64,000 bases of DNA from an uncultured Actinomycetes bacterium. Lineage in GTDB: Bacteria; Actinomycetota; Actinomycetes; S36-B12; CAIYMF01. Below, piece by piece: positions 9,507 through 27,775 of the stretch. The DNA lies in assembly GCA_963697345.1 (NCBI GenBank), contig CAVONS010000001.1:15580-79579 (forward strand), given 5' to 3'. Each line of letters starts with the position of its first letter. Positions within the stretch are counted from its first letter, which is position 1. The notes below the pieces were generated by a model. It was given only the letters and a program-made list of their open reading frames with translations, made no database searches and was not told where the DNA came from. The translations under genes were made by a program, and so were the position numbers.

Positions 9507-9543
9507 GCGACCGCCTCGTCACGCTGGCGTGGCAGCGGTCGGC

Positions 9544-11404: not shown

Positions 11405-13000
11405 ATGATCGACGTGGTGGATGGTGCCGACAAGGTCGGCGTACAGGCGTCCGATCGGCCGGACGCGCAGGCGGGCAGCCCCAGCGGCCACCTGCTGTCC
11501 CGGACTGGGGGAGCGCTGACCGGGAATGCGGCCCGATGGGCCTTTCCGTTGATGGTGGCCGTCTCGGTAGGCGCTTTCGCGATGTGTTTCCCCGACGAGG
11601 AGTTCAGCGGACGGTGGTGGGTAAGTCTGGCGATCTTCCTGCTGCTGTCAGGATTCCCGAGTTGGCTCTACCTTCGATTTCTCAGGATCAAGTTGACACC
11701 GATCTACCGTGAGTTTGTGCACAGCCTGCACCGACTCGGGATAGACGATCCGGGCAATCTGCCCCGCCCCTTGGAGTCGTCTCCCTATTTCGACGCTTGG
11801 CAAGAGGAACGGTGCCGGCAGGCAGCCAAGCGTCAAGCGGACACTCCCGGTCCGGGGACGAATCTGTACGACCAGAAGTTCGTTGCGTACTTCGGCCGTT
11901 TCGACGAAGACGCGCGCTTCAGCGGTATCGGCAGTCTTCTCCCGGTCGTGGCCGCATGGATCGCGTTCGGAGTCGGTTGGCTGACCATCATCTGCAACCC
12001 GGCGTTTGTGTATCCGGACTTGACCTTGGACGACGCGCTGAGATTCGGATTCATGGGCGCCTACGTGTTCAGCCTTCAACTGACCGTGCGGGCCTTCTTC
12101 CAGAACGATCTGCGTTCGGGCACATACGTGGGGATGGTGGAGAGGCTCGTCGTGGTCGCCGTGCTCGTTGCTGTCACCTATGTCGCTTGGACCAGCATCT
12201 TCGAGGGTGGATCCCAGCCGGGGCTGGCCGTCGTCGCGTTCGTCATCGGCTCCTTCCCGCTCGTCGGCCAGGAATGGGTAGGTCAGTTGGCCGCCTCGAA
12301 GCTTCGGAAGAGGGTGCCCTCTGTCATGTCTCGCCACCCCCTGTCCGAGATCGATGGCATGAATGTCTGGTATCAAGCCAGACTCCTCGAGGAAGGCATC
12401 GAGGATGTGCAGAACTTGGCTACCGCGAACATCGTCGACGTCGTCATGCACTCGCGGGCACCGGTAGGTCGCATCGTCGACTGGATCGATCAGGCGCTGC
12501 TGCGCCAGCACCTCCCACCCAATCAGGCGACGGATCGCCCGGACGAGGTCGACCACGAGTCCGACAAGGCCCTAATCGCGGCCCTATATGCACTCGGCGT
12601 ACGAACAGCGACCAACCTGCTCGAGCTGCATGCACCGCTAAGCGTCAAATCCGTCTCGAGGCTTCGGCGCGACGTGCCTACGCTTGAGCCGCACGACCGT
12701 TCGGCTGAGGCGTTTGCCCGGAACATGCTGGACATCGTCCCGGACAGCCGACTGCGCCACGTGGTCGAGGTGCGGATGCTCGCAATCATGCGCTGTCTCG
12801 GATCAGAGCCGAATCTGATGTATGTCCTCAACTGGCGGATCGGCCACATGACGCCGCCCCGCAAGAGCGCCGATGAAGCGCTGCCCGTTGCGCGTGTCAC
12901 GACGAGCCCATCCTCCGAGATCCCGACAGCGGAGCCTGACGTCACCGTTGGGCAGCCAGTCGTCTCAGCGCCGCCGACGCCCGCTCCGGTCGGCCCGTGA
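11405..13000 (+). CDS. Multi-pass membrane protein of unknown function, convergent with the sheath gene
   Basis: ATG 11405 after GGGAAGGGG. Several hydrophobic helices (WAFPLMVAVSVGAFAM, WWVSLAIFLLLSGFPSWLYL, LLPVVAAWIAFGVGWLTII, LVVVAVLVAVTYVAW, LAVVAFVIGSFPLVG). Soluble C-terminal half. No family recognised. Confidence 0.8.
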   Translation: MIDVVDGADKVGVQASDRPDAQAGSPSGHLLSRTGGALTGNAARWAFPLMVAVSVGAFAMCFPDEEFSGRWWVSLAIFLLLSGFPSWLYLRFLRIKLTPIYREFVHSLHRLGIDDPGNLPRPLESSPYFDAWQEERCRQAAKRQADTPGPGTNLYDQKFVAYFGRFDEDARFSGIGSLLPVVAAWIAFGVGWLTIICNPAFVYPDLTLDDALRFGFMGAYVFSLQLTVRAFFQNDLRSGTYVGMVERLVVVAVLVAVTYVAWTSIFEGGSQPGLAVVAFVIGSFPLVGQEWVGQLAASKLRKRVPSVMSRHPLSEIDGMNVWYQARLLEEGIEDVQNLATANIVDVVMHSRAPVGRIVDWIDQALLRQHLPPNQATDRPDEVDHESDKALIAALYALGVRTATNLLELHAPLSVKSVSRLRRDVPTLEPHDRSAEAFARNMLDIVPDSRLRHVVEVRMLAIMRCLGSEPNLMYVLNWRIGHMTPPRKSADEALPVARVTTSPSSEIPTAEPDVTVGQPVVSAPPTPAPVGP

Positions 13001-13074
13001 CTCAGACCCTGGGACGACCGGGAGCGAGACGAAGTTGGCTGCCCCCTCGGGACGCCGCGGCCCAGTCCTGAGGG

Positions 13075-14658
13075 TTACCGGCCCGGAGGCGCCGTGGACT
13101 GGCGGAGCCTGATGATGATGAACTCGCTCGGTCTTAGTGGTGCGAAGCCGACGAGCGTGTTCACGATTCCCCGGTCGATGTCGGCTTGGGTTGTGGTGCT
13201 GCGGTCGCACCGGACGAAGTAGGCGTCGCGCGGCGTGGTGCCTTGGAAAGCGCCGGCCCGGAACAGGGTGTCCAGGAAGTTGTCGACCGTCGTGCGCAGC
13301 GCGGCCCACAGCGGCTCGCCGTTGGGCTCGAAGACCACCCACCGGGTGCCCCGCTCCAGGCTCTCCTGGATGAACAGCGCGGTGCGCCGCACGGGCAGGT
13401 ACTTCCATTCCGATCGGGTCGCATCAGCCCCGGCGGCGGTGCGCGCCCCCCACACCACCGGACCGGAGGAGGCCAGTTCGCGCAGGCAGTTGATTCCCAG
13501 TCGGGTCAGCGCCCCGGTCTCCTCAGTGGTCAAGGTCCTGGTCAGCGCCGATACCCCGAGCAGGGTGCTCTCGCGGCCGGCCGGTGCCTTCCACACCCCG
13601 CGCTGTGCGTCGGTGCGGGCCAGCACTCCGGCGATGGCCCCGGCGGCGGGGAACGCCTCGACCTGGTCGCCGTGCAGGGGGTTCGCCGCCTCGATGCGGG
13701 GGACGTAAACGGCGGCGTTGGCTCCGATCGCCCCGATCCCACCGGCGGCTGCGGCGGCCACATTCGGGGTTGTACTCCAAGTGGTGGGGCCGTCGAGCAG
13801 CAGGATCGCGTGCCGCTTCTGGCAGTACGCGTGCGCGGCGCTGACCACTACCGGATCCAGGTCATCGGACGGCGGGTCGGGCGGGATGACCAGCAGGCTG
13901 AACAGGTCGACGTCCTCCAGGGCGTACAGGCCGGTCCGGTCCGCCCCCGCGGCGGAGCCCAGCAGGCTGGTCTGGGTCAGCGCGCCCCCGTCGGTGCCCC
14001 CGTCGCCCGGGTCGTCAGCCACCCCGGTGCTGGTGGTGTCCGACGCCCACGGCGATTGCCCCACGCCCGGGTCCGGGTGGGGTTCCGGCCGGGATGTGGT
14101 CAAACCGGGTCCGGGGGCCAGCAGTCGGAGCAGGCTCGACCTGCTGGCCAGCATGGTCCCCAGGTCGCGGGGATGCCCGGCGATGCCGACGGTGACGTCC
14201 TGGTGCGCCTCGACATGACCGGTGCCGCCGTCGCGGATCGTGAGGTTGAACAGCGACTGGGGTGTCTCGCCGAGGTCGGCCCGAGGCGGGCTGGTGTTGT
14301 GGTCGACCCGGACCCGTAGCTGGTTGCCCCAGGTCCCGGGGTCGGCGGCCACCAGGGTCAGCGGGCCGTGGCGCAGGACCGCCGGTCCCGCGGTCCCACC
14401 AACCACCCGCACGATGACGGCCGTCGACCCGCCGTTGGTGAAGAAGTCCCGGACCGCGAACCCCAGCAGGCTGCCGTCCCACAGGCCGCCGAACTGGCGC
14501 TGGAACGCTGTGAAGCTGTGGATCGCGACCGGGGTGTCGACTGGGCCACGTGCTGCGCGTCCGACGAACGCGCAGATCGACGTGGGCACCGCCGCGATGA
14601 CGCGCGGGCTGGGGATCTCGGGGATGAAACCCCCGGGAGTGCCTGGCTGCGAAGGCAT
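13075..14658 (-). CDS. Phage-tail/CIS sheath family protein (Afp2-4/Pvc2-4-like)
   Basis: N-terminus PGGFIPEIPSPRVIAAVPTSICAFVGRAARGP. C-terminus GVWKAPAG...GINCLR...VVWGARTAAG...EWKYLPVRRTALFIQESLERGTRWVVFEPN...PRDAYFVRCDRSTTTQADIDRGIVNTLVGFAPLRPSEFIIIRL. ATG 14658 after GGGAAGGGGA. Confidence 0.92.
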   Translation of the reverse strand: MPSQPGTPGGFIPEIPSPRVIAAVPTSICAFVGRAARGPVDTPVAIHSFTAFQRQFGGLWDGSLLGFAVRDFFTNGGSTAVIVRVVGGTAGPAVLRHGPLTLVAADPGTWGNQLRVRVDHNTSPPRADLGETPQSLFNLTIRDGGTGHVEAHQDVTVGIAGHPRDLGTMLASRSSLLRLLAPGPGLTTSRPEPHPDPGVGQSPWASDTTSTGVADDPGDGGTDGGALTQTSLLGSAAGADRTGLYALEDVDLFSLLVIPPDPPSDDLDPVVVSAAHAYCQKRHAILLLDGPTTWSTTPNVAAAAAGGIGAIGANAAVYVPRIEAANPLHGDQVEAFPAAGAIAGVLARTDAQRGVWKAPAGRESTLLGVSALTRTLTTEETGALTRLGINCLRELASSGPVVWGARTAAGADATRSEWKYLPVRRTALFIQESLERGTRWVVFEPNGEPLWAALRTTVDNFLDTLFRAGAFQGTTPRDAYFVRCDRSTTTQADIDRGIVNTLVGFAPLRPSEFIIIRLRQSTAPPGR

Positions 14659-14674
14659 CACGTCCCCTTCCCGT

Positions 14675-16189
14675 TCAGGCGGTCTGCCGGTCGATGCGTC
14701 GAAGCCCAAGCATGGCAGCGGATGACCTCCGGCGGCCGGCGCGTCCGGCCCCCGGGTGGTGTCGCGTGGCTGCCGGGTCCGTTGCCGCCTGACAAGGGAC
14801 GGAGACTCCTCGGGTGGTCGGGGGCTGCAGGAGGCGGGCGAACCGGTCCCGGTCGGGCAGGGCCAGCAGCGGGTAGTCGTGTAGGACGTGCAGGTTGCAC
14901 ATGGCCAGCACGTAGGAGTGCTGCAGCAGGTCGAGGGTGGTGTCGGTGCCGAGTTTGCGCAGCACGGTGGGCACCGTCTCGCTGCGCGTGGCCCAGGTTG
15001 CCCACGCGGCGCGGGTCTGGTCGTCGTCGCCGAGCAGGGCGATGACGGCACGGGCGCGCTGGGCCAGTTCGGGGGTCCTGGACTGCCGGTAGGCGTCTGC
15101 GACCGTGTAGGGGGTTTGGGCGATGTGCACCAGGGCCCCGCGCTGCCCGGTGCCGGTGCGCGCGACGGCCCGCCACCGGGCCACCATGTCCTGGCGGCGC
15201 CGTTCGGTGGTGACCTGGTACATGATGCTGCTGGCGCGTTGCAGGGTGGCTAGCTCGCCGAGCAGGATCAGCCGGGCCCGCCGCAGCCGGGTCCAGCCCG
15301 CGGCGCTGCTGGCGTTGACCACGATGACCTGGTCGAGGGTGCGCCCAACGGCCGGCAGGTCGGGTCGGTGCCGCAGTCGGGCGTCCAGGCCGCTGATCCA
15401 CTGGTCGGCCATGTTGTCGTACACCCCGCCGTCGGTGAGCAGGAACTCGCCCGCCCCGGCGGCTTGGCCGTGGCCGCCGCGGAACCCGTGGGGTGCGGTC
15501 TTCAACCGCCGGGGGGAGAACGCCCCGGGCAGGCACGCCGATGCCTGGACCGCGGTGGACAGGCGCAAGTCGGCCGGCGCGCCCAACCCGAGCCGGTAGG
15601 AGTACAGGAACTGGGGGCTCAGGTAGAGGTGCTCGGCGGACTGCAGCTCGGTGGCACACAGGATGTGATCGATCGACCGATCCAGGTCAGCCAGCCGGGT
15701 CGGCTTGCCCTCCCGGGCGAAGTGCGTTCTGGCCAGAGCGCGGTCGACGACCTCGGAGCGCCGTTCGAACCAGTACCCGACCACAACCAGCAGCACCAGG
15801 GCGGCGATCAGGGTCACCGCGGAGGCCCAGGTCAACCCGTCGGCCAGCAGTTGCACGATGCCGGCCAGCAGGGTCAGCACCGCCAGCCCGGCCCCGGCGA
15901 GCACCGACACGACGTAGCCGTTGGTCGCCGGGCCCCAGAAGAACAGCCCCGTGTCGGCCACGTGCCGGACCAACGGGGTCACCGTGCGGTCGAAGGTGGC
16001 GGTGTCGGTGGTCGGGAAGTCGACCTCGTGGGCGACCACGCCGTTGGCGATCGACCCGCGGGATACCGAGGAGATCGCGGCCACCTGCCGGTGCCTGCCG
16101 CTGTCGACCTGGTACAGCAGGGTTCCCAGCCCCCACATCGTTGCCCGGTGCCCGCCACCGGAGATCGCCACACCGATGTGCTGGTCCAT
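14675..16189 (-). CDS. Patatin-like phospholipase with an inserted two-helix hydrophobic hairpin
   Basis: ISGGGHRA oxyanion motif and the LTDGGVYDN catalytic-Asp motif. The nucleophile elbow reads SVSRG rather than GxSxG. Hydrophobic stretch: VVSVLAGAGLAVLTLLAGIVQLL...ASAVTLIAALVLLVVVGYWF. ATG 16189 after GGGAGG. Confidence 0.82.
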   Translation of the reverse strand: MDQHIGVAISGGGHRATMWGLGTLLYQVDSGRHRQVAAISSVSRGSIANGVVAHEVDFPTTDTATFDRTVTPLVRHVADTGLFFWGPATNGYVVSVLAGAGLAVLTLLAGIVQLLADGLTWASAVTLIAALVLLVVVGYWFERRSEVVDRALARTHFAREGKPTRLADLDRSIDHILCATELQSAEHLYLSPQFLYSYRLGLGAPADLRLSTAVQASACLPGAFSPRRLKTAPHGFRGGHGQAAGAGEFLLTDGGVYDNMADQWISGLDARLRHRPDLPAVGRTLDQVIVVNASSAAGWTRLRRARLILLGELATLQRASSIMYQVTTERRRQDMVARWRAVARTGTGQRGALVHIAQTPYTVADAYRQSRTPELAQRARAVIALLGDDDQTRAAWATWATRSETVPTVLRKLGTDTTLDLLQHSYVLAMCNLHVLHDYPLLALPDRDRFARLLQPPTTRGVSVPCQAATDPAATRHHPGAGRAGRRRSSAAMLGLRRIDRQTA

Positions 16190-16219
16190 GCCCGCACCTC
16201 CCAGTTCCACACCGGCCCG

Positions 16220-17374
16220 CTACGGGCCGGTCATTCGCAACGCTGATCGCAGGGCGGTGGCCGTCGGCCCCCGGCTGGGGGTGTCACCCAGGCGCCACAC
16301 CTGCGGGTTGCGGCGCTCCTCCAGGACCGTGACCACGCTCCCCAGGGTTCGGCCGTCGGTGTCCCGGTCGGCGGTGTAGTAGATCTTCAACGCCCAGTCC
16401 TGAACCTCGCGCCGCCCCCCGGAGCCTGCCTGCGGGTCACGGGCCTCCCGCAGGATCTCCTGGGCCAGGTCGTGGGGGAAGTGGTAGCGCGGGGAGTTCG
16501 GGGCGCAGGACACCACCGCCACCCGGGGGTTCACCCGTTCCATCAACTCGAGGTTGACCCCCCGCTTGGAGGCATGGTGCGACACCTTGAACACGTGGGC
16601 GCGCAGCAGGTCGACATCGCCGGTGGCCGCCGCGATCGCCGCCGAGCTGGCCGAGTTCGACTTCATCAGGTACGGGAAATCGGTCAGCACATAGGACCAG
16701 GACAGAGTTTGCGCGTCACCGCCGAGCACCAGCGACATCGCAGCCAGATCCCTGTCGACCACGTTGCCCGCTACGTCGCGGGTGAGCACCCGCGCAGCCG
16801 GGTGCTGGATCCGCAGCGAGATCGAGGAGTCGTTGATCTCCACCCCGTAGGTGTCGAACCGGTTGCGCAGGTGGATCGACGGGGACAGCACGGTGATCCC
16901 GGTACGCCCGATCCACCGGCTCAGCCCGGACGCCGGCTGGCTGTACACCAGACCGGTTCGCCGCTCCACCTCGGCCATCATCTGGTGGAACGCCCCGATC
17001 GGGTGGAAGTAGCCCGGGTCCCAGAACTCGGCCACCCGATCCCCCAGCCCACCCAGCACCGTGGCCATCCCCCCGATGTGGTCCTGGTGCGGATGGGTGG
17101 CCACCACCAGGGCCACATCGACCTCCGGCGCACCGGGCAGCAGCCCCACCTCAGTCAACTGCTTGACCAGCTTCAGGGGCTTGGCCGTGGCGGCGTCAAC
17201 AATGATCGCCCGGCGATGCCCGGCCACCGGGTCGGAGGGCAGCAGCACGACCTGAGCGTCGCCGTCGCCCACATTCAGCACGAACAACGCCAACGCGTCC
17301 GGGCGCCCAGCCAACTCGTCGACGAGGTCGGCCGTGGCGAACCGGTCGGCCGGGATCGGCTGCGGGGAGGCCAT
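16220..17374 (-). CDS. MBL-fold metallo-hydrolase (ComEC C-terminal-domain-like)
   Basis: VLNVGDGDAQVV...VVATHPHQDHIGG (HxHxDH)...KVSHHAS. The ATG at 17374 sits one base after the upstream stop (TGAC-ATG). Confidence 0.85.
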   Translation of the reverse strand: MASPQPIPADRFATADLVDELAGRPDALALFVLNVGDGDAQVVLLPSDPVAGHRRAIIVDAATAKPLKLVKQLTEVGLLPGAPEVDVALVVATHPHQDHIGGMATVLGGLGDRVAEFWDPGYFHPIGAFHQMMAEVERRTGLVYSQPASGLSRWIGRTGITVLSPSIHLRNRFDTYGVEINDSSISLRIQHPAARVLTRDVAGNVVDRDLAAMSLVLGGDAQTLSWSYVLTDFPYLMKSNSASSAAIAAATGDVDLLRAHVFKVSHHASKRGVNLELMERVNPRVAVVSCAPNSPRYHFPHDLAQEILREARDPQAGSGGRREVQDWALKIYYTADRDTDGRTLGSVVTVLEERRNPQVWRLGDTPSRGPTATALRSALRMTGP

Positions 17375-17375
17375 G

Positions 17376-17930
17376 TCAGACCGCCGGGGACGCCACGCCG
17401 GTCGCCGGACGCGACTCCGGGGCGTCCTCATCCGGTTGCCCGTCCGGGCTTGCGGCCCCGGTCGCGGGGTCGGGCGCGGGCTGGCGCAGCGCCGGGTTCG
17501 CCGCCACCAGCTGCGCGGCGCGCGCCGCCCGCCGCGCCGGACCGGTCACGTCCAGGATGCGCCACTGCCCCGGGCGCTCCAGCCTGCTGTCGTCACCGGC
17601 GCAGATCCAGAACACGTCGCCCACCCGCAGTGCCCGGTCGGCCGCCGGCTGCCCGCCCGCCGCCCGCTGGGCGTTGACCAGCCCCTGGAACTGCCCCACC
17701 GGCATGTTGCGGGTCACCGCCCGCCCAGGGAACACCAGATGCCCGGTAGCGTCGACCGTCGGCCACCGGTCAAGCACGAGGATCACCTGCCCGGCCTCAA
17801 GGTCGTCGACAACCCCGTACCGATCACCGACCTCCGCGGCGAAGTCCGTATTCGCGCCCTCGGGCTCCGGGTGCCACACGCCGGCGACCCTCCGCGCCGC
17901 TGGTACCGACTGCCTGCGCTGCTGGTACAT
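17376..17930 (-). CDS. Hypothetical protein (start uncertain; the ORF extends to TTG 18062)
   Basis: GC3-rich frame from ATG 17930 onward. The stop abuts the MBL start. No recognisable domain. C-terminal Pro/Ala-rich tail. Confidence 0.6.
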   Translation of the reverse strand: MYQQRRQSVPAARRVAGVWHPEPEGANTDFAAEVGDRYGVVDDLEAGQVILVLDRWPTVDATGHLVFPGRAVTRNMPVGQFQGLVNAQRAAGGQPAADRALRVGDVFWICAGDDSRLERPGQWRILDVTGPARRAARAAQLVAANPALRQPAPDPATGAASPDGQPDEDAPESRPATGVASPAV

Positions 17931-18495: not shown

Positions 18496-18865
18496 CTCAG
18501 CCTCCCTGCCCGAAAGCGGCTGTCACCTTCATGATCGCAGGTGCCAGCACCGCCTGCCAATGGCATTTGGTCCCCCCGCTGGCGATCCAGCCGATCGACA
18601 CCATCCCCGGGAGGGGAGCAGCCGCCGTGACATGTGATGAAGGCGGAGGGCTAGAGGCTGGTGGCCTGCTCATCCACTCCACTGAGGGGCCAGGCCTCAT
18701 CCCCGTGTCCCGCCACGCCTTCCGCGTCAAGAGGGGCTACGCGCCGTCGTGAAGCATCGTTCACTTTCGGGCTCTTGAAGTAGCTTGGGGCACAGGTCTA
18801 GCCTCGAACGCACGGCAGGCACGCACGCTCTCGCCCCGTTGGCCTGCTGGGAGAGGCGATGCCCG

Positions 18866-21800
18866 ATGGCCACCACATCGCGACCCACCCGGAAGGCCAC
18901 CCCTCGACCCGCAGGTCGCCGCTCTGCGGCCTCGCAGCCCCGGGACGTCCACGTCTTGGAGGTGCCGCATGAGCCGCTGGCTGTCGTGACCGGCGAGCCC
19001 GGGCTACCGGCGGTGTCGGTGGACGGGCACTGGTTCCGTCTGCTGCGCCCCGGCGACCTGGTCGCCCTGGACGTGCGCGCGCATGGCATGGACCTGGTGT
19101 CCGACGGCTCGGGGGTTGCGCTCGTGCCCCGCGGCGCGGGAGCCCGACTGGAGGTCCGCTACTCGTTCCAGCACGCGATCGAGACCGCCGAGCCGGAGAT
19201 GGCCGTCCCGCCCCCGTTGACGCCCGTCCCAGTCCAGGCCAGGGCAGCCCGGGGCAGCCGACTGGTGTACGCCGTCGCAGCCGACGACCGGATCGAGTAC
19301 AGCGTGGCCGGCGTACTTGCCGCGATGAGCCGACTGCCGCTGATCGTGGTGCCGCTGGCGACTCCGCGGGCGTTCCCGCGCCAGTTCAGGCCCAGCGCCT
19401 TCCCGGAACTGGTGGGATCGGCGGAGCTGCCCGGCGGGATCCGGTTGCTGCGCACCCCCGTTGGCTTGGTCCTGGCGCCCGCGGGACGCCAGCGCGACGC
19501 CCACCAGGCCGATCGGGGTCGTGCCCTGATCTCGGCGGCCACCTCTCTGCGCACCGCCCGGGTACTCATGGCCGCAGAACGTCCTGTTGATCTCAGCGGC
19601 CTGGAGTTCAGCACTGCAGGCCTGAGCGTCGGTGAGCTGACGTTCCGGCCCCCGATCGTGCGACCGGTGCACCAACGACCCCGGGCTCCACGGCCCGACG
19701 AGACCGCCATCGAAGCACCGTTCCGACTCGCGCTCTCCCCGAGCGCGCTGGGCGGGTTCGCCCACGCGACCACGCCGGTGCGCGTCCCGGCCGATCCCAC
19801 CCGGCCGCGCGACCCCGAGCGGATCGAGCTGTGGCACAGCAGGCTGGGCGTGCGCCGCGTGGCCCGCGACGGGACCGTCCACATCGACGAGACCCGCGAC
19901 CCGCAGAAGGCGGTGCGCGCGGTGTGGGCCCGCGACCTCGACCAGCCCTCCCCGGGCACGATCGGCTTCCTGACCTCGCTGACGGGCGAGAACCGTGAGG
20001 TGCTCGTGCGCCAGAGCGCGGACCCGCGGGTCGCCCCACCGCAGCCCGTCGACACCGACCGGCTCTACCTCAGCGCCCTGGGCGCCTGGCTCGAACTGCA
20101 CGGCCGATGGACCATCAAGCCCTACGCGCAGCAGCAGCTGCCCAGCATCGAGGCCTGGGACCACGAGGCCACAAGCGGCCGCGACCAGTACGTGCGCGTC
20201 GTCGAGCCGTACTACCTGTTCCCGTTCGGGCACCGGGCCAGCCTCATCACGATCACCGAGCGCAAGATCAAGGACCAGCTCGCGCCGCAGGCCAGGCTCT
20301 ACCAGCGCAAGTTCATCACGATCGCCGAGCCGGTCCGCGGGTTCGACGACCGCACAGTGCCGTTCCTGCAGGTCCGGATCCGACCGCTGGTCACGCCAAA
20401 CCTGGACTTCAAGCTCCCCCTAGGCTCCCCGCCCAATGTGGCCGGGACGGTGGGCGCCTACGGCGACGACCTGTTCTGGCCGGTCGTCGCTGGGGCCAAG
20501 TACCGGTTCGTCCTCGATTGCCTGGACCATGACGGACGCCGGGTGGTCCTGCGCGCCCCGTTGCTGGCGGTGGCCGCGCACTTGGGCAACGCCACGCAGA
20601 AGACCGACATCGTCACCGCCTACACCACCGACCCGGAGCACCCGATCCCCGCCGACGGGCAGTCGGTGGCCATGGCCCCCAGCACGCTACCGGGGGACAC
20701 CGCATTCGAGACCGTGACCCTGCGGTTCACCGGCGACCCCGGATCGCCAGGAGACCGGAGTTCGGCCCCGCACCTGGCGGAGTCCGACCTCGTCATCCCG
20801 GCGATGCGGCACCTGGCGCCGATCAGCGACCCAGTCACCGTGTCCTACGCGCAGGCCTACCTGGTCGATGGCTTCACGGGCAACAACGCCTCGGCCCAGG
20901 TGCTACTCGCGCTCAAGACGATGACCCAGATCTCATTCGGCGGCGGCACCGACAGGGCCGGCGGGTTCGTGCAGCCCGATCTGCCGGTGCGCGGGCTGTC
21001 CCGCGCGATCGGCGTCGTGGGCGACATCGACTCGGTGGTCAACCCGCCCAGCCCGGCGCAGGCGTTCGACCCGCAGGCCTTCCTCGCCGGCGCCCTGCCC
21101 AAGCTGTTCGGGCTGTTCGAGCTGACCGACATCCTGGCCCTCGCCGGCCTGGACAAGGCCCCCTCGTTCGTGACTGAGCAGCTCGACCGGGTCGCGGCCC
21201 TGCTCGCCGATCTCGACGACCTCACCGGCGCCCTCCAGCGTGCCGTCACGCGCCTTGCCGACGATGCGGCGACCGCGCCGACCACCGCCCTCAAGGACCA
21301 GGCCGCGGCGGCCCAGACACAGATCGCGGCCGTGCAGGGCACCTTCGCCGCCCGCGTGAACGACCTGCACGACGCCCTGGACGACCTGATGTCCCTGAGC
21401 GATCCCAGCGACCTGCCGGCCGTCACCGCCGCGGTTTCCGGACTGCTGGACACCCTGGCGGGCTTCGTGAACGACCTGGCCACGACGGTGCGCACCGTGC
21501 CGCTGCCCCCGGCGGTCAAGGCCGAGCTGGAGCGACTCGTCGGCGCGTTGGCACCTGTTCTCGACGCCGCCGAGGTCGCACACACGCTCGAGGCCATCGC
21601 GGACTTCGTCAACGGCCTGGACCCGGCCAACGGCTCCGTGCGGGCGCGGTTCCAGTGGCGCCCGACCCTGACGAACTTCCCCAGCTCGGCGACCACCGCC
21701 GAGGACGCTCTTTTCTTCGTCAAGCCCGACGGATTCCTGCTCTCGGTCGAGGCGCGCGCCTCGGGCAGCGACGGGGTGGGCATCGACGTCCTGGCCGAGC

Positions 21801-22666
21801 TCGCGGACTTCGGGCTCAACCTGTTCCCGGGTGCGTCTCTGCTGACGATGGGTTTCGACCGGCTGGCCTTCCGCGCCTCGAGCGGGCGCAAGCCCGAGGT
21901 GGACGTGGTGTTCACCGGGATGCAGTGGCAGGGGATCCTGAGCTTCATCGAGACGCTCAAGGAGCTCGTGCCCTTCGACGGGTTCTCCGACCCGCCGTAC
22001 GTGGATGTGAGCACCGACGGGGTCACCGCCGGCTTCGACCTGGCCCTGCCCAACGTGGCGGTCGGGGTGTTCAGCCTCGAGAACATCAGCCTCGGTGCGG
22101 ACGTCCGGGTGCCGTTCCTGGGCGATGCCGTGACGGTCGGGTTCAACTTCTGCACCCGGGAGAAGCCGTTCCGGATGACGGTCATGTGCATCGGCGGCGG
22201 CGGATTCGTCGGCCTGCGCCTGTCTCCCAAGGGCCTGGTCGTGCTCGAGATGTCGCTGGAGGCCGGTGCCAGCCTGTCGATCAACCTCGGGGTGGCCTCC
22301 GGATCGGTGTCGATCATGGTGGGGCTGTACCTGCGCCTCGAGGGCGAGGAGGGGTCGCTGACCGGGTACTTCCGGATCCGCGGCGAGATGGACGTGCTGG
22401 GCCTGATCTCGGCCTCGATCACCCTCGAGCTGTCACTGACCTACGAGTTCGCCACCGGCAAGATGGTCGGCCGGGCCAGCATCAGCATCGAGGTCGAGGT
22501 GCTGTTCTTCTCGTTCTCGGTCGAGGTCAGCTGCGAGCGCCGACTCGCCGGCTCCAACGGGGACCCCACCTTCGCCGCAGTGCTGGGCGTCCCGGAGGAC
22601 GGCACTCCCCTGGTGGGGGTGCCCGACGCCTGGGCCGACTACTGCGCCGCCTTCGCAGGAGCGTGA
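18866..22666 (+). CDS. Giant hypothetical protein 1 (1266 aa), no signal peptide or TM helix
   Basis: ATG 18866 after GGGAGAGG. Very high GC3. Central Ala/Leu/Asp-rich helical block (LDRVAALLADLDDLTGALQRAVTRLADDAA...VKAELERLVGALAPVLDAAEVAHTLEAIADFV). C-terminal ~250 aa of alternating hydrophobic beta-like strands (GGGGFVGLRLSPKGLVVLEMSLEAGASLSINLGVASGSVSIMVGLYLRLEG...ISIEVEVLFFSFSVEVS). Confidence 0.85.
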   Translation: MATTSRPTRKATPRPAGRRSAASQPRDVHVLEVPHEPLAVVTGEPGLPAVSVDGHWFRLLRPGDLVALDVRAHGMDLVSDGSGVALVPRGAGARLEVRYSFQHAIETAEPEMAVPPPLTPVPVQARAARGSRLVYAVAADDRIEYSVAGVLAAMSRLPLIVVPLATPRAFPRQFRPSAFPELVGSAELPGGIRLLRTPVGLVLAPAGRQRDAHQADRGRALISAATSLRTARVLMAAERPVDLSGLEFSTAGLSVGELTFRPPIVRPVHQRPRAPRPDETAIEAPFRLALSPSALGGFAHATTPVRVPADPTRPRDPERIELWHSRLGVRRVARDGTVHIDETRDPQKAVRAVWARDLDQPSPGTIGFLTSLTGENREVLVRQSADPRVAPPQPVDTDRLYLSALGAWLELHGRWTIKPYAQQQLPSIEAWDHEATSGRDQYVRVVEPYYLFPFGHRASLITITERKIKDQLAPQARLYQRKFITIAEPVRGFDDRTVPFLQVRIRPLVTPNLDFKLPLGSPPNVAGTVGAYGDDLFWPVVAGAKYRFVLDCLDHDGRRVVLRAPLLAVAAHLGNATQKTDIVTAYTTDPEHPIPADGQSVAMAPSTLPGDTAFETVTLRFTGDPGSPGDRSSAPHLAESDLVIPAMRHLAPISDPVTVSYAQAYLVDGFTGNNASAQVLLALKTMTQISFGGGTDRAGGFVQPDLPVRGLSRAIGVVGDIDSVVNPPSPAQAFDPQAFLAGALPKLFGLFELTDILALAGLDKAPSFVTEQLDRVAALLADLDDLTGALQRAVTRLADDAATAPTTALKDQAAAAQTQIAAVQGTFAARVNDLHDALDDLMSLSDPSDLPAVTAAVSGLLDTLAGFVNDLATTVRTVPLPPAVKAELERLVGALAPVLDAAEVAHTLEAIADFVNGLDPANGSVRARFQWRPTLTNFPSSATTAEDALFFVKPDGFLLSVEARASGSDGVGIDVLAELADFGLNLFPGASLLTMGFDRLAFRASSGRKPEVDVVFTGMQWQGILSFIETLKELVPFDGFSDPPYVDVSTDGVTAGFDLALPNVAVGVFSLENISLGADVRVPFLGDAVTVGFNFCTREKPFRMTVMCIGGGGFVGLRLSPKGLVVLEMSLEAGASLSINLGVASGSVSIMVGLYLRLEGEEGSLTGYFRIRGEMDVLGLISASITLELSLTYEFATGKMVGRASISIEVEVLFFSFSVEVSCERRLAGSNGDPTFAAVLGVPEDGTPLVGVPDAWADYCAAFAGA

Positions 22667-22669
22667 ACG

Positions 22670-25600
22670 ATGGCCACCGAGTCCTTCCTCGTCACCGCAC
22701 TGCCGCACAGCGCCGACCCCGCGCGCGACGTGCACCTGTCACTGTTCGTCACGCACCGGCTGACCCCGGACGGCCCCTCGGGAGTCGTCGGGGACTTCCC
22801 CACGGTCAGCGCGTGGACCGCCGAGCTGGCAGATGCGCGGATCCGCCTGCTCGGGCGGACCGCCGGCGGGGGCCTGGTACGCATCCCGGTGACCGCCGAG
22901 CTGGGGGTCACCGAGCCCGGGCTCTGGCCCGCGGTGTTCCCGGCTGACCTCGCGGTCCGGCCGTGGGCGACCCCGGACCTCACGGCCGCGCCGTGGCGGA
23001 CGTTCCCCGCGCACCGCATGCAGCAGCACGCGGCCCTGGTGCACGCCGCCGCCATGTTCTCCTCCCCGGTCACGCCCCCCAGCGTCCGCGGCAACGCCCT
23101 GACGGCACCGCTGCTCAAGGCCATCGGCTACGGCGAGTTCCAACGCAGGCTCGGGGTGGAGACGCTGCTGCGGATGGCCCCGGACCTGGACGCCCGCGCC
23201 ACCGAACGCCTGGACGCGCTCTCCGGAGGCGGGCTGGTCGGCCAGGGCCTGGGCACGGCGGGCAACCTGACCGGAGCCGGCCTGGACCCGTTGAGCCTGT
23301 TGGCCGCCGACGTCCACCGCGCGCGGCGCTACTACCAGCGTCCTGAGGACGAGACCCCGCACCAGGACCGACCCACCCCGGGAGCCACCGGGGTCCCGCT
23401 GGCCAAGCCCGATCCGGACTTCCATGCCCGGGCTGCCATGCTCGGCGACCTGTCGCCGCTGCTGCGCAGGCTCGGGCTCGTGATCGACCTGCGCATCGAC
23501 GACCTCGGCGCACTGGATGGCGTCGTCGCGGTCCAGGCCCTGCTCCGCCTTCCCCGGCTGGACAACCCCGTGGCCGAGCAGCCGTGGACGGCCTGCGCGG
23601 TGGCTGGTGTCACGTTCTCGGCGACCTCCGCGAGCGGGGACTACCTCGGGCCGCTGCTGCGCCTCGGCGACGAGCAGCGCTTCCGGGTGCTGGACCTTGA
23701 CCCGGACGCCTCCGGGCTCAAGCTCGAGGCCTACATGCGGACCCTGCCCCGGCTGATGGCCACCGAGACCAACGGGGACCCCGCCAACTCCGCACCGCCG
23801 ACGCTGCGCGCCACAGGCCTGGCGGTGGCACGGGTGGATCGCGCCGCCGACCTCAAGAAGCGCCTGACCGGAGCACCCGCCCGCGATACCGCGCTGCTGG
23901 CCGGGACGGCAGGGGACCTGCACCTCGAGGACGTCGCCCGCGGGGTCCGCCTCGAGGTCTGGGACGACGTGTCGCGCGCGTGGCACTCCCTGCACCGGCG
24001 GTTGATCGACGTGGAGGTCGACGGCGCCGGTCAGGTGCTGGACGACACCCCAGACGTGGGGTTCCTGCAGGGGGCCGCCCTGACCCGCTCGGACGGGCCC
24101 GACGGTGGCGTGCCCGGTGCGCCCTACCACGCCCATGAGGTGCTGGCCGGGTGGGACGGCTGGTCGCTGGCCGCCCCGCGGCCGGGGAAGCTCATCGTCC
24201 ACGAGGACGGCCAGGAGGTGCTCAAGGACGCCCCCGAACCCGACCCGGATCCGGTGAACCCGGTGTCCACCACCTCGCGGGTGGAGCCGGGTACGTTGCC
24301 CCGTCTGCGCTATGGGCGCAGCTACGCCCTGCGCGCGTGGGCCGTGGACCTGGCTGGCAACAGCGCCCCGCACCAGGTGGTCGGCCCAGCGGTGCCGCGG
24401 TCCGGTCCCGGCCCCGCGACTGGCCGGATCGACCCTGACGCCCGGGAGGACCTCGACCCACGACTGCACGCTGTGGCCCAGCGGATCGCCGCGGCTCGAC
24501 TGGCCGCACTGCCACTGGATGCCACGACGAGGACCGACCAGCCGGAGGCGACCGTGGGGCTGGGCGCGGTGCGCGACCAGATCCGGATCCTGCGACCCGT
24601 GGTCCAACCCGGGCCACAGGAGGGCCACGGCGCTGCCGGTCTGGACCTGAGCGAGTTCCGGCCCACCGGCGTGGAGCTCGTGGACCTGCTGGTCCGACAG
24701 CGGATGGTCCAGCGCGGGGAGCGCGCCCGGCTGGTCGCGGTGAACCGGCGGGGGCAGATCGAGGCCCTGTTCGGCGAGAGTGCTGCGACCCTCCCGCGGC
24801 TGCTGGAGCGCACCGACGCCCAGACGCCTGACACCTCGTATGCCGACGCCCTGGTGAGCTCCGTGCGGGCCGGCGGGCGGATCTCGGCCAGTGCCGCTGC
24901 TGCGCTGCTGAGCGCTGCCGCGGACCTGATCACCACCCCCCGCCCGTTCCTGCGCTGGGACCCGGTGATCGAACCGGCTCTGGTGCCGCGACATGCCTAC
25001 ACCGAGGCTGAGTCCCTGACGACCCTGGTGGTCCGCTCCGGCGTGCAGGGCCCCGCCGAGGACGGCCTGACGCTGACGATCCTCGCGCCGGACGAGTTCA
25101 GCACGCAGGCGGTGGCTGAGCATCCCGAGCTGCCGCTGGCCTGGCGCGCGGATTCGCAGCGCCACGTGGCCCCACCGAAGACCAGCCAGTACGACGCGGA
25201 GCTGCACGGGATGTTCGACGCGGCGATGGGCAGCGGCGACCCTGCTGCGGTGTCGGCCGCCCTGGCCGTGGCACTGCGCGAGTCCGGGACGTTCCTGGAC
25301 CCGACTGTGGCCGACCCGGTCACGCCCGGCGCGCGCCTGCCGCAGCCCGGGATCGCGTTCCACGCCTCCCCCACCGCGGAGGTGCCCGCCGCGGCCACCC
25401 CCGCAGACCTGCCGCGCGGCGAGCCGCTCACGCCGGGCCAGTACGTGGTGCACGACGTGGACGACCTCGTGCTGCCCTACCTGCCCGACCCCCTGGCCAC
25501 GGGCCTGTCCCTGGTCTTCCCCGACGCCGGCACCGGCCATCACCTGACCGGCCTGCTGGCCATCGAAGGGGTCACCCTGCGCTACTCGGGCACGTGGCCG

Positions 25601-27298
25601 GCACTGGCGCCCCTGCGGTTCGTGCTCGAAGGCGGCCCGGAGCTGGCGGCCCGGGTGGACGGCGACGCTGTGCATTTCGCGGTGCCGCCCGGCGAGCAGC
25701 TGCGGATGCGGCTGTCCTCCGCACTGGATCGCGCATCCCTGGACCTGATCGGGCTCTGGCGCTCGCTGCCCGCGGCCCTGCGCACCAACGACCTGCTGGC
25801 CGAGGCTGCCGCCGACGGATGGCTGTGGTGGCTGACGCCGGCGACCGAGGTCCGCTTGGTGCACGCGGTGCCCCGGCCGGTGGAGGTGCCGCGCCCGACC
25901 GTGCTGGTGCCTATCCGCACGCCCGGGGACACTGCGGTGACCCTGTTCGGCGGCGTGGACCTGCACGGCCCGAGCACGGAGCGCCTCGACGTGGAGGCTG
26001 CGTGGAGTGAGTGGGTCGATGACCCGACCAAGCCGGAGCCGACGCGACGCGACGTGGTGGCGGCGGCCGCGGACACGACCGTCCGGTACGAGGAGGACCT
26101 GGTCGTGCTCGGCGGCGTCGACAACGACCTGCCGCTGCCCGACGGAAGCGTCATGCATCTGCACAAGTGCGTGCACCAGCTCGGCGACACCCGCCACCGC
26201 AGCATCGACTACCGGATGCGGGCCACCACGCGCTATCGCGAGTACTTCGACCCACGGGTGCTGCCCAGCGTGGACGACGTGTCCGTGCTCGGGCCCAGCC
26301 GCACTCTGGACGTGCCCAGCACGGCCCGCCCCGCCAAGCCCGTCATCGCCGACGTCCTGCCGCTGTTCCGGTGGTACGAGCACACCGAGCCCGAGCAGCC
26401 ATTCGCGCTGCGTCGGGAACGCCGGGCCGGGCTGCGCATCTACCTCGAGCGGCCGTGGTACTCCTCCGGGGACGGCGAGCTGTTGGCGGTGGTCCTGGCG
26501 GCGGGCAACGCGCTGGCCGAGGACCACGTCAGCCAATGGGGTGGCGATCCGGTGTTCCTGCAGCAGGGCCCGGCGAACCGCTCGGTCCTCCCGCTGGTCG
26601 ACATCGCGCACCTCGTGGGCCTCGACGACCGGGCCGAGGGTGGTCGGCCAGTCGGCCCACCGGTGTCGCGGACCCTGACCGACGTGCCCGGCCAGCCCGC
26701 GGTCTGGGCGCTCGGGTACCGCCCGGAGTACTCGGTGGCGCGGGGCCAGTGGTTCGTCGACGTGGCACTGGACCCGGGGACGGCGTTCGCCCCGTTCGTG
26801 CGGCTGGCCGTGGCTCGCTACCAGCCCAGCTCGTTGCCCGGGCTGCACCTGTCGCCGGTGGTGCGCTGCGACTTCGTGCCGCTGCCGCTGGAGCGGACGG
26901 CCTCGCTGTCCCGACCCGATGCGCAGACCACGCGCGTGAAGGTGACCGGTCCGGTCGGGGTGCCCGGTGGACTGGTCCACGCCGTGCACGGTGCGAACTT
27001 CGCGCAGATGTTCGCCGCGTCGCGACGGATGCGGGCGCGGCTGGAGACCCGGGTGCCGGAGGTTCCCTCCGATCTCGGCTGGCGCACCGTGGCGGCCGTC
27101 GACCTGCCCGTTCTCGGGTTCGAGGGGACGGTCGTGACCTGGTCGGGGAGCCTGGACCTGCCCGAGGAGCTGCCCCCGCGCAGGCCGGGGGACGATGAGG
27201 CGTGGCGGGTCGTGCTCGAGGAATGGGAGACACTGCCCGCCGACGGACCGGAGGGAACCTCGACACGGCTGGTGTACGCCGACGTGCTGCCGCTGTGA
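22670..27298 (+). CDS. Giant hypothetical protein 2 (1542 aa), translationally coupled to giant protein 1
   Basis: ATG 22670 is 3 nt after the upstream TGA, with AGGAGCG upstream. Normal amino-acid composition and high GC3, unlike the Arg/Gly/Pro/His-rich 1533-aa antisense ORF. Signature stretch LPRLRYGRSYALRAWAVDLAGNS. No domain recognised. Confidence 0.85.
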   Translation: MATESFLVTALPHSADPARDVHLSLFVTHRLTPDGPSGVVGDFPTVSAWTAELADARIRLLGRTAGGGLVRIPVTAELGVTEPGLWPAVFPADLAVRPWATPDLTAAPWRTFPAHRMQQHAALVHAAAMFSSPVTPPSVRGNALTAPLLKAIGYGEFQRRLGVETLLRMAPDLDARATERLDALSGGGLVGQGLGTAGNLTGAGLDPLSLLAADVHRARRYYQRPEDETPHQDRPTPGATGVPLAKPDPDFHARAAMLGDLSPLLRRLGLVIDLRIDDLGALDGVVAVQALLRLPRLDNPVAEQPWTACAVAGVTFSATSASGDYLGPLLRLGDEQRFRVLDLDPDASGLKLEAYMRTLPRLMATETNGDPANSAPPTLRATGLAVARVDRAADLKKRLTGAPARDTALLAGTAGDLHLEDVARGVRLEVWDDVSRAWHSLHRRLIDVEVDGAGQVLDDTPDVGFLQGAALTRSDGPDGGVPGAPYHAHEVLAGWDGWSLAAPRPGKLIVHEDGQEVLKDAPEPDPDPVNPVSTTSRVEPGTLPRLRYGRSYALRAWAVDLAGNSAPHQVVGPAVPRSGPGPATGRIDPDAREDLDPRLHAVAQRIAAARLAALPLDATTRTDQPEATVGLGAVRDQIRILRPVVQPGPQEGHGAAGLDLSEFRPTGVELVDLLVRQRMVQRGERARLVAVNRRGQIEALFGESAATLPRLLERTDAQTPDTSYADALVSSVRAGGRISASAAAALLSAAADLITTPRPFLRWDPVIEPALVPRHAYTEAESLTTLVVRSGVQGPAEDGLTLTILAPDEFSTQAVAEHPELPLAWRADSQRHVAPPKTSQYDAELHGMFDAAMGSGDPAAVSAALAVALRESGTFLDPTVADPVTPGARLPQPGIAFHASPTAEVPAAATPADLPRGEPLTPGQYVVHDVDDLVLPYLPDPLATGLSLVFPDAGTGHHLTGLLAIEGVTLRYSGTWPALAPLRFVLEGGPELAARVDGDAVHFAVPPGEQLRMRLSSALDRASLDLIGLWRSLPAALRTNDLLAEAAADGWLWWLTPATEVRLVHAVPRPVEVPRPTVLVPIRTPGDTAVTLFGGVDLHGPSTERLDVEAAWSEWVDDPTKPEPTRRDVVAAAADTTVRYEEDLVVLGGVDNDLPLPDGSVMHLHKCVHQLGDTRHRSIDYRMRATTRYREYFDPRVLPSVDDVSVLGPSRTLDVPSTARPAKPVIADVLPLFRWYEHTEPEQPFALRRERRAGLRIYLERPWYSSGDGELLAVVLAAGNALAEDHVSQWGGDPVFLQQGPANRSVLPLVDIAHLVGLDDRAEGGRPVGPPVSRTLTDVPGQPAVWALGYRPEYSVARGQWFVDVALDPGTAFAPFVRLAVARYQPSSLPGLHLSPVVRCDFVPLPLERTASLSRPDAQTTRVKVTGPVGVPGGLVHAVHGANFAQMFAASRRMRARLETRVPEVPSDLGWRTVAAVDLPVLGFEGTVVTWSGSLDLPEELPPRRPGDDEAWRVVLEEWETLPADGPEGTSTRLVYADVLPL

Positions 27299-27642
27299 CC
27301 GGCGCCGGCACTGGGCGGCCGCCGCATCATGCCGGCCCATGACGGACGCGCAGCGAAACCCGGCGGACTACAAACGACCAGTTGCGCACCGGTAATGGGC
27401 CCGGCGCGATATGGCCGGGCTCCTGTGCCGGCCTGTTCCCCGACCCGCGACCGGGTTCGGCTGGCTGGCCGTCCACGGCGCGTTCCCGCATCTCGTGGAA
27501 CCCGATCTCGGCGGTGCGATCGCCTGGTTGGACCGGCTTTCACAGCCCGGGCAGATCGGCCCAGCCGACGTTGACCCAGAGGTCGCGCGGCGCCCGGTCG
27601 CGTTCGTCCGCGTCCGGTGTCCGCACGTGTCCGCAGCCATCG

Positions 27643-27746
27643 ACGCCAGAGGCCAGTCCTCGGTCTCCCGGGAACTGGCCTCTGACCTGCTACGACATTG
27701 GTAGCGGGGGCAGGATTTGAACCTGCGACCTCTGGGTTATGAGCCC
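27643..27746. repeat. Right copy of the 104-bp direct repeat (att), overlapping the 3' 48 nt of the intact tRNA-fMet
   Basis: Identical to 431-534. Confidence 0.95.
27648..27683 (-). terminator. Hairpin immediately downstream of tRNA-fMet (10-bp stem AGAGGCCAGT/ACTGGCCTCT, 16-nt loop), duplicated at 436-471
   Basis: Perfect inverted repeat read from the sequence, 16 nt beyond the tRNA 3' end on the tRNA strand. No T-tract, which is common in high-GC actinobacteria. Confidence 0.4.
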
Positions 27747-27775
27747 AGCGAGCTACCGAGCTGCTCCACCCCGCG
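27699..27775 (-). tRNA. Initiator tRNA-fMet (anticodon CAT), 77 nt with encoded CCA
   Basis: Reverse complement: CGCGGGGTGGAGCAGCTCGGTAGCTCGCTGGGCTCATAACCCAGAGGTCGCAGGTTCAAATCCTGCCCCCGCTACCA. It has a cloverleaf, a C1:U72 mismatch and three G:C pairs closing the anticodon stem (initiator hallmarks). It closely resembles E. coli tRNA-fMet. Confidence 0.95.

Follow-up and report, generated by a model that had tools for sequence, protein, structure and literature searches.

A mobile pair of very large coupled genes lying beside a contractile injection-like locus in an uncultured Actinomycetes bacterium

Introduction

Does a pair of giant genes that adjoins a tail sheath operon belong to a contractile injection system (CIS), or is it an independent element that lies next to one? 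The question is raised by a 64,000-nt stretch of contig CAVONS010000001.1 (assembly GCA_963697345.1) from an uncultured Actinomycetes bacterium; the whole stretch is referred to here as the window. The two genes, which we call A and B, are transcribed divergently from an operon with a sheath gene. An earlier sequence-only reading of this DNA suggested that they could be highly divergent baseplate or fiber replacements, a delivery pair of the Tc-toxin kind, or else an unrelated effector. The best explanation overall, to which we assign a probability of roughly 0.45, is that the pair is a two-gene cassette, self-contained and horizontally mobile, which lies beside the CIS-like locus without being part of it and acts as a heteromeric membrane or conflict effector. 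Very probably, A and B are an autonomous module that has no relation to CIS. The pair deserves attention because its ~2,800 residues are conserved, selected, mobile and present in hundreds of species, with no known function and no convincing fold relatives.

Independence from the sheath operon

Membership of A and B in the CIS-like island, as a divergent baseplate, fiber or cargo, is suggested by position. The pair adjoins, in divergent orientation, an operon whose sheath gene is genuine, as had been claimed and as both PHROG and Pfam matches confirm (Table 1). The same tRNA-Met island holds this operon and a Pvc16_N-AAA ATPase, and no baseplate, tube or spike gene was recognized in it.

The comparison with other genomes points in the opposite direction. 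No homolog of the sheath, the patatin, the MBL-fold protein or the two small genes of the operon lies within 10 kb of any of 86 A-B loci. Conversely, A and B are both absent from all 80 metagenomic loci around sheath homologs (794 kb in total), whereas the Pvc16_N-AAA ATPase co-occurs with the sheath homolog in 37 of these 80. None of the 80 contains the patatin, the gene for the MBL protein or either of the small genes. The sequence-only reading had itself named neighborhoods that never include the other island genes as something that would tell against it. The neighborhoods are indeed negative in both directions (0/86 A-B loci, 0/80 sheath loci), and the proposed functional link to the sheath is not supported.

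The boundaries of the similarity between related loci lead to the same result. In the closest relative (L006/L009), A and B have 95% and 98% protein identity to those of the window and stand among housekeeping genes, with no CIS gene nearby. Because this 95%-identical copy occupies a different neighborhood and the nucleotide similarity is confined to 18749-27302, we infer that the segment is mobile. Its left edge, at 18749, falls within the intergenic region that separates A from the sheath operon. This region had been described as a shared divergent promoter region of ~370 bp. Its size and orientation are correct (18496-18865, 370 bp), but it is not one shared unit, as the right-hand ~117 bp (18749-18865) travel with the cassette. 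A promoter-like motif lies within these ~117 bp, and a second promoter-like site, for the minus-strand operon, is found at 18560-18531. The cassette edge and the separate candidate promoters thus indicate that the region is a junction of unrelated pieces. The 5' region has no Rfam match. On the other side of the cassette, a GNAT-like acetyltransferase gene has left a frameshifted remnant of its start at positions 27338-27395 of the window (+), where it breaks off ahead of the att-like repeat. The same gene is intact 3' of B in L009 and in L007, an 87%-identical relative.

Protein comparisons are also negative. The top 50 Protein Data Bank (PDB) fold matches of either predicted structure contain no chain of a CIS or T4 baseplate or of a Tc toxin, and the suggested kinship with baseplates, fibers or Tc toxins is thus not supported. 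A and B give no Pfam signal for Baseplate_J, gp25, VgrG or PAAR. The pair resembles the baseplate and fiber proteins of extracellular CIS of the Afp-PVC type (Afp11/Afp12/Afp13 class), as well as T4 gp6/gp7, in protein length (~1000 aa or more), in the adjacency of the genes and, in the window, in having a sheath next to it. It differs from them in the lack of sequence, profile or top-50 fold similarity and in never occurring with a sheath elsewhere. Tc (ABC) toxins (TcA/TcB-TcC) are likewise multi-hundred-kDa, multi-gene and horizontally mobile, and combine helical with beta-rich regions. A and B, however, have no RHS/YD repeats, no TcA-type channel and no Tc Pfam or top fold match, and are two genes rather than three. 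Altogether, a functional role of A and B in the CIS-like island has next to no probability. The pair should not be counted among the components of this island, and a false association is thereby removed. The fallback of the earlier reading, an unrelated effector, is possible.

Coding potential and gene coupling

The two open reading frames (ORFs) of 1266 and 1542 aa were found where they had been reported, and both are genuine genes under purifying selection. Third-codon-position GC content (GC3) equals 0.91 in A and in B, which is the pattern of real genes in a window of ~70% GC. The dN/dS ratios between the window and four relatives are 0.12-0.21 for A and 0.08-0.23 for B, in agreement with the earlier statement that both frames are intact and selected. 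An alternative in-frame TTG start for A is present at 18785. An antisense ORF of 1533 aa (22739-27340, minus strand) spans nearly all of B; as it fails the GC3 test and has an Arg/Gly/Pro-rich translation, it is an artefact of high GC content and not a gene.

The 3-nt spacing of the genes was noted before and is exact. The Shine-Dalgarno sequence of B, AGGAG, sits inside A, which makes the proposed translational coupling plausible. Neither a signal peptide nor a transmembrane helix is apparent in A or B, as had been stated, judging from Kyte-Doolittle hydropathy in a simple scan and from a look at the N-termini, with no dedicated predictor. The sequence motifs quoted earlier are present in both proteins. 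A and B are not paralogs of each other: hhalign comparison of their profiles gave a probability of 0.3%.

Distribution of the pair

Full-length homologs of A and B are numerous (42-98% identity) and are encoded on the same contigs with adjacent locus tags. Among the matches listed, all those to which the source gave a name are called "hypothetical" or "uncharacterized". Relatives of B occur in 274 of 185,579 species genomes (one genome per species), in Actinomycetota, Acidobacteriota, Cyanobacteria, Gemmatimonadota, Pseudomonadota (Alpha-, Beta- and Gammaproteobacteria), Myxococcota, Methylomirabilota and Verrucomicrobiota. Cultured carriers include Kribbella, Micropruina, Arthrobacter, Ornithinimicrobium, Actinotalea, Sphingomonas and Nitratireductor, with Kribbella lupini and Micropruina glycogenica among the native hosts. 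The A-B pair as such is known from at least nine phyla and is located on chromosomes, chromids and plasmids. More distant pairs, with 27-34% identity in B, belong to plasmids of the Bacillus cereus group, Rhizobium and Streptomyces and to the chromid of Cupriavidus metallidurans CH34 (at about 1.317-1.326 Mb).

The A family is larger still. A single-sequence phmmer search with A yielded 4,129 clusters (50% identity) at E<=1e-3 and 1,870 at E<=1e-30, from at least 12 phyla. When the search started from a Bacillus A-like protein, all names were again of the "hypothetical" or "uncharacterized" kind, and the hosts included Paenibacillus, Planococcus, Priestia, Chloroflexota, Armatimonadota and Thiothrix. 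A and B represent a very large, pan-bacterial and uncharacterized superfamily with no match in Pfam, NCBIfam, PDB or, at the level of motifs, the literature searched.

The order of the genes is invariant. Wherever upstream DNA is available (84 loci), A directly precedes B and has the same orientation, and the commonest gap between the A stop and the B start across related loci is 3 nt. Of 80 loci suitable for the test, 71 have both ORFs free of interruptions. The nine interrupted loci come mostly from the "MFD" series of metagenome-assembled genomes, and both sequencing or assembly error and true pseudogenes are possible. In plasmid pRlX2 of Rhizobium ruizarguesonis (L087, 6947-19214), A is split at the start of the helical block into ORFs of 837 and 519 aa, followed by a 1569-aa B, a small gene and an 837-aa patatin-like phospholipase.

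Some relatives of A have a long form (1,650-1,870 aa) with a conserved N-terminal extension of ~500 aa, in which no Pfam domain was found. In eight of the nine long forms inspected (P0293, P0305, P0322, P0329, P0336, P0368, P0373 and P0386, the exception being P0350), an "RLNLxxLR" segment is followed at about residues 35-100 by a canonical twin-arginine translocation (Tat)-like motif S/T-R-R-x-F/L/M-L and a hydrophobic h-region. In L089, the long-form A (1503-6812) still has a B-like gene downstream, whose product carries no signal. The Tat-like signals suggest that at least part of the superfamily acts outside the cytoplasm. A of the window has an RR pair at residues 18-19, no h-region and no ~500-aa extension. 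A of the window thus does not qualify as a Tat substrate, and the Tat-like motif is restricted to a distant long-form subfamily.

Domain content and predicted structures

The earlier observation that the proteins lack recognizable domains holds in all searches performed. A and B have no match in NCBIfam, PADLOC (E<=0.01) or PHROGs, and the only Pfam match is a sub-threshold one of Baculo_PEP_C to the helical block of A. Single-sequence searches of PDB returned nothing credible (one match with E=0.81 for B). In profile searches of PDB, the B profile found nothing below E=0.1, and the A profiles matched only helical bundles, by composition; the matches of the helical block are to apolipoproteins and designed helical bundles. 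Motif strings of A and B were not found in the literature searched, and tblastn at E<=1e-3 detected no relative of either protein in 50,697 phage genomes.

Structures were predicted with AlphaFold2 from 121-sequence alignments for A residues 67-1266 (model m64b746f41fa6; pLDDT 81.3, pTM 0.68) and B residues 343-1542 (m87034c7bd599; pLDDT 83.0, pTM 0.80). The arrangement suggested for A, a helical coiled-coil-like block followed by a beta-rich C-terminus, reappears in the model at residues ~775-915 and ~924-1226 (Table 1). The region that precedes the helices, residues 67-773, is modeled mostly with pLDDT above 90, and the invariant Arg, Asp, Glu and His residues fall mainly within it. Conservation in A is highest (0.73-0.86) in the predicted C-terminal beta domain, where the GGGGF motif is located. 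The C-terminus itself is helical, with the last residues AAFAGA. The N-terminal tail is Lys/Ala-rich and histone-H1-like in many homologs, and PF07382 is annotated on two of them (P0024 and P0082). In B, motifs RLEVWDD, GWDGWSL and LRYGRSY belong to the sandwich region at residues 424-565.

Both models were compared with PDB (top 50 matches examined), and that of A also with BFVD, using Foldseek. No match of either protein has a TM-score above 0.3. PDB offers no convincing structural neighbor for either protein, nor does BFVD for A, and known domains were detected in neither. The matches that were obtained are resemblances in the style of secondary structure and do not demonstrate homology; those to porins, large lipid transfer proteins, J-like proteins and A2M count as weak leads.

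For A, the best whole-chain matches in PDB are to large lipid transfer proteins: MTP (twice), ApoB100 and vitellogenin account for four of the 17 top matches, with E-values down to 3.6e-4 and more than 1000 aligned columns in three of the four. The order of predicted parts is also the same, namely a beta domain, a helical domain and large amphipathic beta sheets. One possible explanation would be a physiological envelope or lipid-handling complex, a bacterial analog of large lipid transfer proteins in which A binds or shuttles lipid by means of its helical bundle and large beta sheet and B serves as a scaffold. The apolipoprotein-like helical block, the strong and uniform purifying selection and the Tat-like signals of the long forms would agree with it. 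So would some lipid-related genes nearby, although these are anecdotal: patatin, GDSL lipase and FabI in the window, LCAT in L004, a patatin in Rhizobium, GPAT-type acyltransferases and WS/DGAT in L006, and PAP2 (twice) and diacylglycerol (DAG) kinase in L005. On the other hand, the fold matches have TM-scores of at most 0.1 and probabilities of 0.06-0.30, there is no sequence homology to these eukaryotic secreted proteins, and the window proteins lack an export signal. No lipid-gene family is enriched among the 119 nearest neighbors of the pair, and the sparse spread over species genomes suits an accessory trait rather than core lipid physiology. We therefore consider a lipid-handling complex distinctly unlikely.

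Many of the remaining top PDB matches of A are porins, with probabilities up to 0.99, TM-scores of ~0.25 and a root-mean-square deviation (RMSD) of ~20 A. Several features of a porin- or autotransporter-like outer-membrane barrel are missing: no signal peptide is seen by inspection, and the C-terminus is helical. Many hosts are monoderm (Actinomycetota, Bacillota).

The best BFVD matches of A are a phage tail fiber, host specificity protein J and a "possible phage tail protein" (E 9e-4 to 1e-2, probability 0.44-0.77). For B, PDB matches comprise FN3/Ig arrays, a mastigoneme, T5 pb4, alpha-2-macroglobulin (A2M) and C5 chains and arrestin, with TM-scores up to 0.24, that is, generic beta-sandwich arrays. 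Two of them are phage T5 tail-tip entries, one being central fiber pb4 (E 5e-4 and 3e-3). These matches, the size of the proteins and the richness of B in FN3/Ig-like sandwiches recall siphophage tail tips (lambda J-like, T5 pb4), and the pair could be a domesticated module of this kind used for adhesion or puncturing. However, the tail-tip matches have TM-scores of at most 0.12, and the matching segments are generic beta-sandwiches and beta-sheets. Neither PHROGs nor the 50,697 phage genomes contain a homolog, and no other tail gene was seen in five annotated neighborhoods, among the 119 nearest neighbors or in a sheath search of all loci. A tail-tip origin is accordingly very improbable.

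A2M and complement C3-C5 resemble B in its length of ~1500 aa and its largely beta-sandwich composition, and several A2M and C5 chains are among the fold matches. In contrast to them, B has no A2M-family Pfam domain, no signal peptide and no lipobox, and the TM-scores do not exceed 0.13. A pairing of bacterial A2M with a gene like A is not known.

Genomic neighborhoods

The genes around the pair vary from locus to locus. Five neighborhoods annotated with Pfam all differ: one has RHS and PAN_4; another has TIR-WD40 on both sides; L004 has PAN_4, Big_7/PKD, LCAT and AAA_16-TPR; L005 has PAP2, DAG kinase and Trypco1; and L006 has housekeeping genes. In all-versus-all clustering of 1,745 flanking ORFs, no recurrent third gene was found, as each family is limited to at most 12 of 82 loci except for synteny among close relatives. 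The 119 nearest neighbors matched 197 Pfam families, none of them in more than five neighbors. The absence of a recurrent neighbor family indicates that the cassette is functionally self-contained.

A patatin was tried as a candidate partner and rejected. The patatins of the window and of pRlX2 are unrelated by BLAST, none stands beside the CH34 pair, and that of the window has no homolog in the 86 loci. In L007, a 1030-aa protein is encoded 5' of A-B (2839-5928, +), with an HEVAHVVQ motif of the zinc-binding type and, by eye, a DUF4157-like N-terminus. DUF4157-type domains are associated with eCIS-associated and polymorphic toxins.

Some loci contain genes of conflict type nearby, namely TIR-WD40, RHS, STAND-like AAA_16-TPR, HicA, Trypco1 and DUF222-HNH. 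PADLOC models matched among the neighbors include MADS (mad2/3/6), PD-T4-6 and the phospholipase-effector model. The pair could accordingly be a new two-gene anti-phage defense system, with B as a sensor and A as an abortive-infection membrane effector, a possibility that overlaps with a conflict role in general. Such a system would be sporadic, horizontally transferred, carried by islands and plasmids and organized as an autonomous operon, as A-B is. However, A and B themselves match no PADLOC model, domains typical of sensors or effectors (NTPase, nuclease, TIR and others) are absent from them, and the neighbors are mostly housekeeping genes. Sensors that face phages are not usually so well conserved from phylum to phylum, and the Tat-like signals of one subfamily point outside the cytoplasm. 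On balance, an anti-phage function is quite improbable.

Possible function

By the membership tests performed, A-B fits no known kind of system. As no function-bearing domain or structural homolog was found, any mechanism rests on weak fold resemblance. We nevertheless favor the heteromeric membrane or conflict effector named above, and its parts can be considered separately. The two proteins would be made in fixed proportion and would form a heteromeric complex that measures ~300 kDa per A:B pair and contains no known enzyme domain. A could be the membrane- or lipid-engaging module, by means of its amphipathic five-helix bundle and long-stranded amphipathic sheet. B, with a putative variable hinge, could provide the scaffold or a recognition array made of beta-sandwiches. 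The complex may serve an accessory conflict function, as a toxin-like or defense-like effector acting on membranes.

That the pair engages membranes or lipids falls somewhat short of an even bet. This leaning comes from the predicted secondary structure of A, the matches to lipid transfer proteins and porins, the apolipoprotein-like helical block, the conserved C-terminal beta domain and the Tat-like long forms. A conflict or effector role is a tentative assignment, on the doubtful side. It is favored by the sporadic distribution, the location on islands and plasmids and the occasional conflict-gene neighbors. A more specific scenario combines the two parts and sees in the pair an as yet undescribed, pan-bacterial class of two-component machines made of giant proteins: A:B would be a new membrane-attacking or lipid-capturing device for conflict with bacteria, eukaryotes or phages, made of a vitellogenin/apolipoprotein-like lipid-engaging subunit and a macroglobulin-like beta-sandwich subunit and moved as a promoter-equipped 8.5-kb cassette. 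In this complete form the scenario is unlikely.

Several observations weigh against a membrane or conflict effector. A and B of the window have neither signal peptide nor transmembrane helix. The A:B complex is deduced only from the coupling of the genes. Soluble beta sandwiches, too, typically show alternating hydrophobic strands. The Foldseek matches of the models are weak, with TM-scores of at most 0.3, RMSD of ~20 A or more and mostly probabilities below 0.9. Evolution is uniform and slow, and conservation is highest at the C-termini; most polymorphic toxins and many defense sensors behave differently. Finally, when PADLOC was applied to the 119 neighbors (E<=1e-10), a minority matched, the commonest model in 3 of 119, a figure that has no background rate to be set against.

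If A-B is indeed a membrane or lipid effector or a defense complex, it would represent a new class of bacterial conflict system with new folds, and possibly a membrane-engaging protein tool. If it is physiological, a testable hypothesis for a very large family of "hypothetical proteins" would still be obtained. Tractable hosts of distant versions exist in C. metallidurans CH34, the B. cereus group, Streptomyces and Rhizobium.

Genomic island and its other genes

The 27.1-kb island is a mosaic and is bounded by a perfect 105-bp direct repeat that consists of the 3' half of tRNA-Met and 57 nt of a downstream hairpin; ARAGORN predicts a tRNA-Met gene at each copy. A-B forms the right-hand third of the island, consistent with the 31% reported before. 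The decayed integrase and UDG-like gene of the earlier reading were not found: no integrase was detected at either end of the island, and in the ORFs searched, Pfam yielded nothing credible, although matches up to E<=1 were admitted.

Table 1. Features of the window. Predicted domain boundaries within A and B are given both in residues and in window coordinates.
Feature	Position	Strand	Description
Mobile cassette	18749..27302	+	extent of nucleotide similarity (95.4%, blastn) to closest relative L009
Promoter-like motif	18775..18804	+	candidate; TTGAAG-N18-TAGCCT; conserved in 4 related loci (alignment)
Gene A	18866..22666	+	ATG start; 1266 aa, 135 kDa, pI 5.3
A, residues 1-66	18866..19063	+	variable basic tail rich in Pro, Arg, Thr, Ala; conservation 0.29
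A, residues 67-773	19064..21184	+	N-terminal beta-sandwich, short helix and disordered loop, large beta-rich core (AlphaFold2 prediction)
A, residues 775-915	21188..21610	+	bundle of five long amphipathic helices (AlphaFold2 prediction)
A, residues 924-1226	21635..22543	+	antiparallel beta sheet or barrel-like domain, ~20 strands of <=18 residues each (AlphaFold2 prediction)
A/B junction	22657..22672	+	AGGAG 22657-22661 within A; TGA 22664-22666; acg; ATG 22670
Gene B	22670..27298	+	1542 aa, 165 kDa, pI 5.3
B, residues 1-342	22670..23695	+	conserved N-terminal region (alignment)
B, residues 424-565	23939..24364	+	beta-sandwich region; motifs RLEVWDD, GWDGWSL, LPRLRYGRSYALRAWAVDLAGNS
B, residues ~589-753	24434..24928	+	linker, mostly helical, length-variable; conservation 0.38-0.44
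B, residues 770-1542	24977..27295	+	conserved C-terminal region: short alpha/beta part, then string of Ig/FN3/macroglobulin (MG)-like beta-sandwiches (AlphaFold2 prediction)
Orphan gene, 146 aa	18055-18495	-	sheath operon
Orphan gene, 228 aa	17376-18062	-	sheath operon
MBL-fold, ComEC-C-like protein	16220-17431	-	sheath operon
Patatin	14675-16210	-	sheath operon
Tail sheath	13075-14673	-	sheath operon; PHROG tail sheath 4.5e-54; Pfam Phage_sheath_1, Phage_sheath_1C
LegP-like zinc metalloprotease	9544-10851	-	
Graspetide-type ATP-grasp maturase	8547-9518	-	TIGR04187, 2e-78
YscW-like protein	8192-8605	-	
S41 peptidase	5577-7562	-	
S8 subtilase, mycosin-like	3747-5576	-	
Pvc16_N-AAA ATPase	786-2366	-	11 kb from sheath operon
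Direct repeat, left copy	430-534		105 bp, identical to right copy
Direct repeat, right copy	27642-27746		105 bp, identical to left copy
tRNA-Met, left	487-564	-	
tRNA-Met, right	27699-27775	-	

The sheath operon and the distant AAA ATPase have the appearance of a CIS remnant, atypical or degenerate, to which genes for a lipase and a hydrolase have been fused. In a different frame from the sheath gene, an ORF of 147 aa (12965-13408, minus strand) overlaps its 3' end and has no Pfam or PHROG match. Weak tblastn matches to it lie within the sheath homologs of 8 of the 80 sheath loci; this probably reflects conservation of an alternative frame in GC-rich DNA and not a tube gene. Further to the left, the island carries a run of protease and RiPP (ribosomally synthesized and post-translationally modified peptide)-like genes (3747-10851, minus strand), which may be a graspetide cluster.

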